A stretch of DNA of 58,017 nt from a virus: the IMG/VR virus record IMGVR_UViG_3300037089_000557; one strand, 5' to 3'. The notes beneath the pieces are model-generated. The model had not been told where the DNA came from. It searched no databases and worked only from the letters and a program-made list of their open reading frames with translations. Every line of letters begins with the position of its first letter. The first letter of the stretch is position 1. The translations under genes were made by a program, and so were the position numbers. Shown here piece by piece: positions 16,151-18,064 of this stretch.

Positions 16151-16390
16151 ATGTGGATGTCCATGAAACGCCTAACACACGAACAAGCACTTCTTGATCA
16201 ATATGAAAAACAATGGCCTATATTTATTGCCGTAGTTGTTTATTACATTGGTATTTTTGCCAGCAGTGCGCCATTTTTGTTTTTGTTCGGACATGCATAT
16301 GGATACCGTTTTGGAGACCTCGCTTTCGCTATAGTGTTTATACTTTCATCATTTAGTATATATTGGCTAAATCAATGCCCAAAAAGATAA
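16151..16390 (+). CDS. Small membrane protein
   Basis: Two hydrophobic helices. Confidence 0.35.
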   Translation: MWMSMKRLTHEQALLDQYEKQWPIFIAVVVYYIGIFASSAPFLFLFGHAYGYRFGDLAFAIVFILSSFSIYWLNQCPKR

Positions 16391-17364
16391 TTGTAGTTAC
16401 TAAGAAGACGTCTTATTCAAAATACATACAAGATCAGGATGATGATGGATCAAAAGAACTATTATTGAACGCCAACCCAGCCGTTGCCTTTTGGCAATCA
16501 TCTCACGATACACATATGAAGACTCTTGATGTTGTTGTAAAGAGTCTTCAGAGCCTTAATGTTGTCTGCCACGTAATTGATTCAAAATCATTTGTAGCAG
16601 AACCAGATGATATTGAAATGGTTATAACTGTCGGCGGAGATGGAACATTACTATCAGCATCTCACAACGTAAGTGGAAAACTTCCAATTCTAGGAGTTAA
16701 CTCAGATCCTGATAATAGCATTGGGTTCTTCTGCTATACAACCGCACAGACATTCTTGAATCATTTAACTCAGGCCCTAAATGGTACATGTGCTATCACA
16801 GAACTTACAAGAATGAGCGTCACTAAGAATGGCAAATTCGTAGCAAACAGAATCCTGAATGATGTATTGTTCTGTCATACGAATCCAGCGGCAACTTCCA
16901 AATACATACTTCAATTAATGGAGCGGAGGTCATTGACTCCAAATAGTGTGTCGGCAATGAGTATGGAGAACGTAGCTCGGAAAGGGAATGAGCTGTTTCG
17001 TATTCGGTCTTTGCCACTTTCAATGCAAGAGGCCCAGAGATCGAGTGGCATATGGGTGGGGCCCTCTGCCGGCAGTACGGCGGCCAGACGCTCAGCTGGT
17101 GCGACACCTATGGATCTTGCATCTAAAGACTTGCAATTGTGCGTCAGAGAGTTGTATCATCGGCCTTCATCTAAGCCTGGTCTACGGGAGCTGGTTGCAA
17201 AGCCAGGACAATTCATCAAGGTAATTAGTAAAATGGATAGTTCTGCTATGTATCTTGACGGAGATTATAGTGTTGTTCCAGTTGGCCTTGGAGATGAAAT
17301 TAACTTTGAAAAATCAGAAGACACTCTGAGCCTATTAGGTAAGCCAAATGTATTTTGTGGGTGA
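16375..17364 (+). CDS. nadK: NAD+ kinase
   Basis: VITVGGDGTLLSASH (GGDGT) and downstream NAD-kinase-like core; ATG at 16375 preferred to the TTG at 16363. Confidence 0.75.
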   Translation: MPKKIIVVTKKTSYSKYIQDQDDDGSKELLLNANPAVAFWQSSHDTHMKTLDVVVKSLQSLNVVCHVIDSKSFVAEPDDIEMVITVGGDGTLLSASHNVSGKLPILGVNSDPDNSIGFFCYTTAQTFLNHLTQALNGTCAITELTRMSVTKNGKFVANRILNDVLFCHTNPAATSKYILQLMERRSLTPNSVSAMSMENVARKGNELFRIRSLPLSMQEAQRSSGIWVGPSAGSTAARRSAGATPMDLASKDLQLCVRELYHRPSSKPGLRELVAKPGQFIKVISKMDSSAMYLDGDYSVVPVGLGDEINFEKSEDTLSLLGKPNVFCG

Positions 17365-17584
17365 TAAAATTTTCGAAAGCATGTCAGATGCAATGAGCTG
17401 CTGCAGCTCTGGTCCTTTAGAATCAGTTGTTACTGATGAAAATGGTACCGTGCTAATGAGACATCATGAACTTCCAATAGAAGACATCTTTGGATTGATG
17501 ATAGCTAAAACATATTGGATGCTGTGCTCTGATCCATATGATCATTTCGCTGACATGTCTAGCGAACTTTCGCGTTGAGCCTTT

Positions 17585-18064
17585 ATGATCATATCCGGAA
17601 CTGGGCATCGTCCACAAAAATTAGGTGGATTTTCAATTGTTCGAAACAAGATCTTTAATTATGTCTGCAAGACCGCAGAAGAGATATTGATAAAAGAAAA
17701 TCCTACAAAGATTATTACTGGAATGGCACTTGGATGGGACACCTGGCTAGCACAAATAGCCTACAAACTCAGAATTCCATTTATTGCCGCCGTTCCTTTT
17801 GTTGGACAAGAATCTATATGGCCAGCTGAATCTAAAAGTACATATGCGAAATTGCTGAATCTGGCAAGTGAAGTTGTTATTGTAAGTGAAGGCCTATATA
17901 GCCCAGAGAAAATGCAAAGGCGTAATGAGTGGATGGTAAATCACTCTGATAAAGTGTTGGCTGTTTGGGACGGCACAAATGGCGGAACGGGAAATTGCGT
18001 CAAGTATGCAGCCAGCATTGGAAAAGAAATCATTAGAATAAACCCACAGCAAGCATATGTCTGA
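17585..18064 (+). CDS. DUF1273 / YoqJ-like SLOG-family protein
   Basis: ISGTGHRPQKL...ITGMALGWDTW...AVPFVGQESIWP...LAVWDGTNGGTGNCVKYAASIGKEIIRI matches the DUF1273 pattern. Confidence 0.65.
   Translation: MIISGTGHRPQKLGGFSIVRNKIFNYVCKTAEEILIKENPTKIITGMALGWDTWLAQIAYKLRIPFIAAVPFVGQESIWPAESKSTYAKLLNLASEVVIVSEGLYSPEKMQRRNEWMVNHSDKVLAVWDGTNGGTGNCVKYAASIGKEIIRINPQQAYV

Follow-up and report, generated by a model that had tools for sequence, protein, structure and literature searches.

Does a virus encode its own NAD kinase, and if so, does the enzyme form a functional unit with the genes beside it? The question is raised by positions 16375-18064 of a stretch of 58,017 nucleotides (nt) from IMG/VR virus record IMGVR_UViG_3300037089_000557 (hereafter the window, meaning this whole stretch), where a first-pass annotation made from the sequence alone had proposed a NAD kinase followed by a DUF1273 SLOG-family protein. 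We found three genes in this interval rather than two: a NADK2-like NAD(H) kinase gene (16375..17364, + strand, 329 amino acids (aa) from an ATG), a conserved gene of 76 aa (17348..17578, +) that the annotation had overlooked, and a YpsA/DUF1273-clade SLOG gene (17585..18064, +, 159 aa). The ATG of the 76-aa gene lies within the last kinase codons, giving a 17-nt overlap, and the SLOG gene begins six nt past the 76-aa gene. For the kinase, an alternative in-frame TTG start at 16363 would add four residues to give 333 aa. The three genes are part of a run of open reading frames (ORFs) packed closely or overlapping on the + strand across 16.1-20.6 kb, and no terminator-like site was found on that strand over the same span.

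We modestly favour the interpretation, drawn from sequence comparison and structural modelling, that the kinase would use ATP (or polyphosphate) to phosphorylate NAD+ or NADH at the 2'-OH of the adenosine ribose, yielding NADP(H), and would serve as an auxiliary metabolic gene by which the phage secures NADP(H) and gains its own control of that pool in infection. The 76-aa protein would modulate the kinase. The SLOG protein would act independently, probably binding a ligand of the adenine-nucleotide or ADP-ribose type, or nucleic acid, and its position beside the kinase would reflect a gene order conserved in a phage clade, not an obligatory two-component system. We infer substrate, product, partner interaction and physiological role from family, fold, catalytic residues and gene order, which were observed directly.

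The assignment of 16375..17364 to the NAD kinases was borne out by profile, structure and homologue tests. In Pfam, the protein matched PF01513 (NAD_kinase) with 35 bits against a cutoff of 25.5 bits, over residues 77-133 only. A phmmer search against PDB sequences placed human mitochondrial NADK2 at the top (E = 1.4e-9, 40.7 bits, residues 2-126), with other NADKs, cytosolic and bacterial, at no more than 24.8 bits, and the C-terminal half alone had no match in the same kind of search. Using a profile built from 38 homologues (A1), human NADK2 was matched with 75 bits (E = 3.9e-20) and classical NADKs with at most 43.5 bits (E = 1.7e-10 at best), the alignment now also including the LNE and QKSSG...GS(K/T)A segments of the C-terminal domain of NADK2. 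We then modelled the protein with AlphaFold2 (AF2) on the 38-homologue alignment, obtaining a mean predicted local distance difference test score (pLDDT) of 84 and a predicted template modelling score (pTM) of 0.80. Both domains of the two-domain fold, an N-terminal alpha/beta domain and a C-terminal beta-sandwich, were confidently modelled, and the weak stretch is confined to residues 186-209 (pLDDT below 50 at 186-196 and 205-209). When the model was compared to the PDB with Foldseek, all of the top 50 matches were NAD(H) kinases (50/50, template modelling score over the query (TMq) 0.55-0.71), the best being NADK2 (7r4l, E = 1.2e-18, TMq 0.71). The kinase is thus nearer to NADK2 than to classical NADK by phmmer, by profile and by Foldseek.

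The catalytic motifs could be followed along the protein and across the family. The GGDG motif (residues 87-90; 16633..16644, +; GGDGT at 87-91) is invariant in 157/157 family representatives, and its D89 corresponds to D161 of NADK2 in the phmmer alignment, a residue whose replacement by Asn leaves NADK2 with only trace activity (PMC9245612). K10, G87-G88-D89-G90 and N162 are all invariant across the 38 homologues. The NE/D motif is L161-N162-D163, aligned to LNEV of NADK2, with N in 157/157 representatives and D or E at the next position in 157/157. A NADK2-type loop, VNSDPDNSIGFFC (residues 108-120; 16696..16734, +), aligns to GVNTDPERSEGHLC of NADK2; in the pairing of VNSDPDNSIGFFC with NADK2 VNTDPERSEGHLC, F118 occupies the position of H191, and K10 that of K76. 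In NADK2, K76 contacts the diphosphate and H191 stacks on the adenine, and the loop carrying H191 is missing from archaeal NADK (PMC9245612). The F118 position is aromatic (F, Y or H) in 113 of the 157 representatives, and S115 is invariant among the 157. Finally, SSGIWVGPSAGSTAA (residues 223-237; 17041..17085, +) is the counterpart of the glycine-rich 'GSTAY' motif of NADKs: G233-S234-T235-A236 is present, and the next position, aromatic elsewhere, is Ala237. Taken together, 16375-17364 is a complete two-domain NAD kinase of the NADK2-like type with its catalytic motifs intact.

The last of these positions is where the substrate comes into question. In NADK2 the equivalent residue, W319 (Tyr in classical NADK), stacks on the nicotinamide (PMC9245612). 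Its correspondence to Ala237 was obtained from the 38-homologue profile alignment together with residue-number arithmetic, and the position is Ala, Gly or Ser in 151/157 representatives. Ten residues upstream, W227 is present in 152/157, and from the sequences we read it as a relocated nicotinamide-stacking residue. Several points weigh against the interpretation that we favour: Ala237 is invariant among the 38 homologues, so that the substrate could differ; Pfam PF20143 (NAD_kinase_C) had no match in the kinase at E <= 0.01; and the NadK equivalogs of NCBIfam scored 20-48 bits against cutoffs of 211-493 (the best, 47.9 bits, against a cutoff of 326). These scores far under every NadK cutoff, and the small residue at the stacking position, would also fit a prokaryotic and viral NADK2-like clade that phosphorylates NADH, deamido-NAD, ADP-ribose or a derived nucleotide instead of NAD+. 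Consistent with such a shift are the basic residues that follow Ala237 in viral and Polyangiaceae sequences (R238-R239, or Q-R/Q-H), by analogy with the basic residue Arg-293 that biases yeast Pos5 to NADH, and the bacterial partner gene described below, of the ADP-sugar pyrophosphatase type. We nonetheless regard a changed substrate as distinctly unlikely: W227 could take over the stacking, the diphosphate-contacting Lys, the adenine-stacking aromatic and the catalytic Asp are all conserved, and every close structural neighbour is a NAD(H) kinase. A preference for NADH, the substrate phosphorylated by Pos5 and plant NADK3, would moreover still make the enzyme a NAD(H) kinase.

Apart from the active site, the viral copy is marked by a lineage-specific insertion of ~33 aa in the C-terminal domain (~residues 184-216; 16924..17022, +), modelled with low AF2 confidence, whose length ranges from 0 to 33 aa among members of the viral clade and which is missing from bacterial homologues. 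It lies upstream of the position of the EMKA dimerisation insert, a metazoan-only segment of 22-47 aa that follows the GSKAW motif (PMC9245612). Judged by spacing only, no EMKA-type insert is present in the kinase, there being no added segment between SAG (240-242) and R258-E259.

To delimit the family, we ran a HMMER scan of 1.84 billion cluster representatives (50% identity clusters), yielding 198 clusters at E <= 1e-30 and, at the looser threshold of E <= 1e-10, 997. The kinase belongs, by sequence, to a large, uncharacterised prokaryotic NADK2-like family. In GTDB data with one genome per species, searched with patterns that favour close relatives, the cellular homologues were all from Myxococcota/Polyangiaceae (including Sorangium, Chondromyces and Byssovorax), with 37-43% identity. 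At 150 of 159 bacterial loci the kinase homologue is accompanied by a NUDIX gene of 225-258 aa, located upstream on the same strand at every locus examined for its orientation, whose product matches YffH/AdpP weakly (5.6e-8) and ADP-ribose diphosphatase at 1.6e-5. The pair spans loci L011, L013 and L022-L177, on Myxococcota/Polyangiaceae chromosomes, and looks like an uncharacterised operon; at L013, a glucose-6-phosphate dehydrogenase gene is also near the kinase homologue. We count both this pairing and the dehydrogenase for the metabolic interpretation. The 41 kinase sequences closest to that of the window (43-100% identity) group together as a single clade in 85/100 neighbour-joining (NJ) bootstraps. 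Direct capture from Polyangiaceae is not claimed, as the viral sequences and the sampled Polyangiaceae-like sequences formed a clade in 0/100 NJ bootstraps. The eukaryotic mitochondrial NADK clade, whose provenance has been reported as unknown (PMC6675116), could have in this family, which has the H191-type loop of NADK2, its missing prokaryotic relative, going by sequence similarity.

The closest tie of the kinase is to the 76-aa gene. Only 25 homologues of its product were found among 5.8 billion proteins, all of 54-83 aa, on contigs that coincide in size with those carrying the viral kinase. The gene is present at 18/19 viral loci and 0/159 bacterial loci, and its homologues always start with MY(F/Y/S)V, inside the 3' end of the kinase gene. 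The overlap with the kinase stop codon makes translational coupling to the kinase probable. Given this overlap of start and stop, and the strict co-inheritance, the gene is the likeliest functional partner of the kinase, and we take the pair as strong evidence of functional coupling. The AF2 model (pLDDT 84.5) has a beta-beta-alpha-beta-beta-alpha layout. No match to the protein was found among Pfam, PHROG, NCBIfam or PADLOC families, and Foldseek returned nothing significant for the model in the PDB (best E = 2.5). Its likeliest role is that of a kinase partner or regulator.

The SLOG gene is of another kind. The DUF1273 label given to 17585..18064 by the first-pass annotation proved correct on Pfam, PDB, PHROG and motif evidence: the protein matches PF06908 (YpsA SLOG) with 61.6 bits against a cutoff of 27.7, DprA with 36.4 bits, PDB 2nx2 (YpsA) at 7.1e-8 over residues 2-135, and PHROG 289 at 1.2e-15. 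It also resembles ShosA, the DprA-like antitoxin of Shosta (PADLOC, 1.9e-8; PDB 9vzo, 2.9e-3), and with 42.6 bits against the 165-bit cutoff of NCBIfam PRK13660 it is not an equivalog of Bacillus YpsA. Invariant in five viral homologues are T6-G7-H8-R9-P10, G46-M47-A48-L49-G50-x-D52 and G133-G134-T135, and these TGHRP, GMALGxD and GGT motifs presumably line the ligand pocket, as we assume for SLOG proteins in general. In GenBank, 305 phage records contain homologues with 46-56% identity, and a tblastn match to the kinase was found in none of them. The phages bearing them include 44-60-kb ones such as Pectobacterium phage PP99, in which (the one neighbourhood inspected) the SLOG gene lies between ssDNA-binding and primase/helicase genes. 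YpsA-clade SLOG domains have been reported in 31% of jumbo phages, with a predicted role in processing or sensing ADP-ribose-derived signals (Iyer et al. 2022). The SLOG gene is thus an ordinary, already known kind of phage gene.

What, then, does the adjacency of kinase and SLOG gene mean? The order kinase, 76-aa gene, SLOG gene is found at 17/17 viral loci that are long enough, within 0-2.1 kb, and at 0/159 bacterial loci. Two features of this arrangement fall on the same side of the balance as the doubts about the substrate. In lineages only 46-49% identical, the order survives local rearrangement: the kinase pair is separated from the SLOG gene by an inserted AAA ATPase gene and one or two small genes, and the flanks are rearranged. 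At two loci, L010 and L017, a NADAR gene directly follows the SLOG gene, which allows a link to ADP-ribose-based conflict. Both could point to counter-defence, as the first-pass annotation had suggested, here by a module in which kinase, 76-aa protein and SLOG protein act with macro, NADAR and DUF4326 proteins against immunity that depletes NAD+ or signals through ADP-ribose derivatives: the kinase might shift NAD+ into a NADP+ pool unusable by NAD+-specific NADases or TIR signal synthases, and the SLOG protein might bind or degrade signals of the cyclic ADP-ribose (cADPR) type. This module fits predictions that assign to viral YpsA-clade SLOG proteins an action on cADPR-like signals and to NADAR, Macro and DUF4326 proteins the processing of ADP-ribose derivatives (Iyer et al. 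2022); it also fits the arms races over the NAD pool documented in the literature. Set against it, the viral loci all fall in a single monophyletic clade, and SLOG genes are common in phages that have no such kinase, so that the adjacency of the two genes is weak evidence of coupling and the conserved order may be clade synteny rather than coupling. With the SLOG gene in hundreds of phages that lack the kinase, the adjacency is not that of a general two-gene system. Neither the kinase nor the 76-aa protein matched a PADLOC or anti-defence family, and a NAD kinase lowers NAD+ and does not rebuild it.

The same two loci hold a further gene. Just upstream of the NAD kinase gene, with stop and start overlapping, lies a dephospho-CoA kinase gene, assigned at L010 with 147.5 bits against an equivalog cutoff of 65.55 bits. 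The coordinates of the dephospho-CoA kinase and then the NADAR gene are 6380..7000 and 10579..11334 at L010, and 9393..10004 and 13533..14210 at L017; the NADAR proteins measure 225-251 aa and the inserted AAA ATPase ~452 aa. Cofactor-completing kinases and ADP-ribose-processing domains thus occur side by side in this neighbourhood. Dephospho-CoA kinase and NAD kinase both complete an adenine cofactor by adding its final phosphate, a pairing that favours the metabolic interpretation, and their coupling in two sister lineages fits cofactor supply at least as well as counter-defence.

Counter-defence was first suggested by a wider set of genes in the window, and of the NAD- and ADP-ribose-related genes listed by the first-pass annotation all stood except one. 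Besides the kinase and the SLOG gene, the window holds genes for a NADAR-domain protein (53629..54087, -; Pfam PF08719, 94.9 bits), a DUF4326 protein (53129..53413, -; Pfam PF14216, 69.1 bits) and a macro-domain protein (39102..39650, -), as well as a MutT-like NUDIX protein. The macro-domain protein matches the PDB macrodomain 5e3b at 3.8e-31 and PHROG 335 at 2.8e-19, with 14.8 bits only for Pfam Macro; its match to the ADP-ribose 1''-phosphate phosphatase 6lfu is at 2.6e-4. Its closest likeness is to the Streptomyces macrodomain 5e3b, with weaker likeness to ADP-ribose 1''-phosphate phosphatases and to DarG, and it may be relevant to the recently described phage macro-type phosphatases of ADP-ribose 1''-phosphate that counter aRES. 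The gene that did not stand is the 'NadE-like' one (40868..41590, -), whose sole signal was a 20.6-bit PHROG match over residues 8-54, with no Pfam or PDB match. We also scanned for salvage families (NadV, NMNAT/NadR/NadM, NadE and the NARP1 enzymes Adps and Namat) with Pfam at E <= 1e-3, or E <= 0.01 within 14-20.6 kb, and found no NadV/NMNAT/NadE-type gene among the 91 ORFs of at least 75 aa in this 58-kb window of a ~400-kb genome. The presence of macro, NADAR and DUF4326 genes in the window speaks for a counter-defence module, but they lie 21-36 kb off on the opposite strand, and no salvage or reconstitution genes accompany them in the window. Overall, we judge a dedicated counter-defence role unlikely, and prefer NADP(H) supply by the kinase with an independent SLOG protein.

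The element that carries these genes is probably a huge phage. Four contigs with close kinase homologues are IMG/VR viral genomes of 131-392 kb, and others reach 454 and 463 kb. In the 58 kb of the window itself there are 19 tRNA genes, many of its ORFs match no family, and neither ribosomal genes nor other core cellular ones were found in it. Several of its proteins match phage-only PHROG families, and for one of these proteins homologues occur in 217 phage records. We call the assignment probable, not proven, because neither a capsid nor a terminase gene was found within the window; no portal gene was found there either. Could the source of the window instead be a cell with a small genome, or else a giant plasmid-like element, with the kinase as its housekeeping NadK? 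The missing structural genes would fit this, and so would a 73%-identical homologue (P0007), on a 463-kb contig, that NCBI labels 'Candidatus Pacearchaeota archaeon'. The same P0007 sequence is also on an IMG/VR viral contig, and its NCBI contig is probably a huge-phage contig mis-binned into an archaeal metagenome-assembled genome. Cell-like genes could likewise be cited for a cellular origin, namely those for IF-1 (39688..39960, -), a CCA-adding enzyme that carries an HD domain (47680..49308, +), GroES (50873..51214, +) and a GT51 peptidoglycan transglycosylase (20706..22379, +). Also cell-like are the genes for a 341-aa protein of the GMP-reductase/IMPDH family that lacks CBS domains (49721..50746, -; GMP reductases use NADPH) and for a protein resembling nucleoside 2-deoxyribosyltransferase (35069..35539, +). 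At 23822..25693 (+), a radical-SAM gene is split by an intein with a LAGLIDADG homing-endonuclease domain. A mix of IF-1, GroES, CCA-adding enzyme, GT51 transglycosylase and intein-split radical-SAM gene is typical of huge phages. Given the four related viral genomes, the tRNA and gene content and the phage-only families, we consider a non-viral source very improbable.

As a gene of a virus, the kinase appears to be new. No match was found in 50,697 GenBank phage records, whether to the kinase by tblastn or to positions 14000-22000 by megablast, and PHROGs holds no family for the kinase or the 76-aa ORF. A Foldseek search of the kinase model against the viral structures of BFVD gave nothing credible (best TMq 0.16). 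A survey of NAD and ADP-ribose systems in 21,191 viral proteomes makes no mention of a viral NAD kinase (Iyer et al. 2022), and in the literature we found no phage NAD kinase, only host enzymes and one on Borg elements. Joint Genome Institute (JGI) pipelines already label metagenomic homologues of the kinase 'NAD+ kinase', and no discussion of them was found. This looks like the first NAD kinase to be noticed in a virus.

NAD+ is a central battleground between phages and bacteria, where phages are known to respond by rebuilding NAD+ or by sequestering signals; the literature and databases searched describe no enzyme of a phage that turns NAD+ into NADP+. If active, the kinase would extend the control of huge phages over host cofactor metabolism by one node. 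The 76-aa protein, strictly inherited with it, would be a candidate new regulator of NAD kinase. The prokaryotic family, an uncharacterised lineage resembling mitochondrial NADK2, comprises at least 198 clusters (50% identity) and has an active-site Trp that appears relocated. A bolder version, which we think quite improbable, would see in the first virus-encoded NAD kinase and its 76-aa partner a new move in the NAD-centred arms race: an early shift of NAD+ to NADP(H), or the 2'-phosphorylation of an ADP-ribose-derived nucleotide, would deprive NAD+-specific NADases of their substrate or TIR/SLOG signalling of its signal, and the phage would keep a reducing cofactor.

Some further features of the surroundings were recorded. 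Just upstream of the kinase block lies a tRNA gene with anticodon CTA (16071..16146, +), which would read UAG and is labelled tRNA-Pyl by ARAGORN; a sigma-70-like promoter match (10/12) lies ahead of it at 16042-16070. A 79-aa ORF (16151-16390) overlaps the start of the kinase gene and was left out of the module, as relatives do not conserve it. TAG is still the stop codon of 13 of the 68 genes of at least 90 aa in the window, which therefore shows no global recoding, and the tRNA may be a suppressor for a gene subset, for example late genes. Same-frame pairs of sizeable ORFs split only by TAG were seen at 10540..13563 (+), 8747..10147 (-), 33032..34468 (+) and 4774..5853 (+), one example being 915 aa plus 88 aa, after the vault-like gene; such pairs are candidate read-through targets of this tRNA. 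The vault-like gene (10555..13296, +) encodes a 913-aa protein resembling the major vault protein (MVP), with matches to MVP_shoulder (96 bits) and Vault_3 (34.7 bits) and a Band_7 signal, and in the closest relatives (L001-L006) the gene is likewise kept close to the kinase. From Myxococcales and Cytophagales, a 2019 preprint described bacterial homologues of MVP that have a band-7 domain, and no mention of a phage-encoded copy was found in the literature.

How does the locus compare to known systems? By sequence and by fold, the best solved relative of the kinase is human NADK2 (C5orf33), of the mitochondrial clade that includes plant NADK3. The two share the N-terminal K-T-x-Y with its diphosphate-binding Lys, the GGDG Asp, NE/D and QKSSG, as well as a VN(S/T)DP...G-aromatic-x-C loop that archaeal NADK lacks. 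They differ in that identity is ~18% in the structural alignment, the EMKA insert is missing, and Ala stands in place of Trp319, a conserved Trp lying ten residues upstream. Kinases of the NADK2-like family measure ~290-330 aa and have no targeting peptide, and the viral copies add the variable loop insertion and the 76-aa neighbour. Classical NadK/PpnK has the same two-domain fold (Foldseek 1e-14 to 1e-18) with GGDG, NE/D and Gly-rich motifs; unlike it, the viral kinase has the NADK2-type loop and lacks the GSTAY tyrosine. Where the viral kinase has this loop, classical NadK has what we take to be a G-x-N-x-G-x-L-G-F-L segment.

A NAD kinase on a huge accessory element, as here, has been described in the Borg elements of Methanoperedens, where its authors read it as adjusting NADP(H) for the metabolic genes of the element. 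We likened the two by description only, and count this precedent, as an analogy, for the metabolic interpretation. Borgs are archaeal elements not classed as viruses, and their kinase lies in a polyhydroxyalkanoate (PHA)/nitrogenase cluster, not beside a SLOG gene. The window SLOG protein, for its part, is a member of the phage DUF1273/Bacillus YpsA group (SP-beta YoqJ), with its 46-56% identical homologues in cultured phages, and only in the clade of this phage does a DUF1273 gene lie downstream of a NAD kinase gene. The phage systems of NAD+ restoration (NARP1/NARP2, NadV-NadM/NadR), found mostly in large phages alongside Macro, NADAR and SLOG genes, address the same metabolite pool as the kinase. 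NARP1, NARP2 and salvage, none of whose enzymes was found in the window, rebuild NAD+ from ADP-ribose and nicotinamide, whereas a NAD kinase consumes NAD+ to make NADP+. Measured against these systems, the viral kinase is a new member of a known enzyme family, found in a new setting, and what sets it apart is a Trp that appears relocated and a dedicated small partner.

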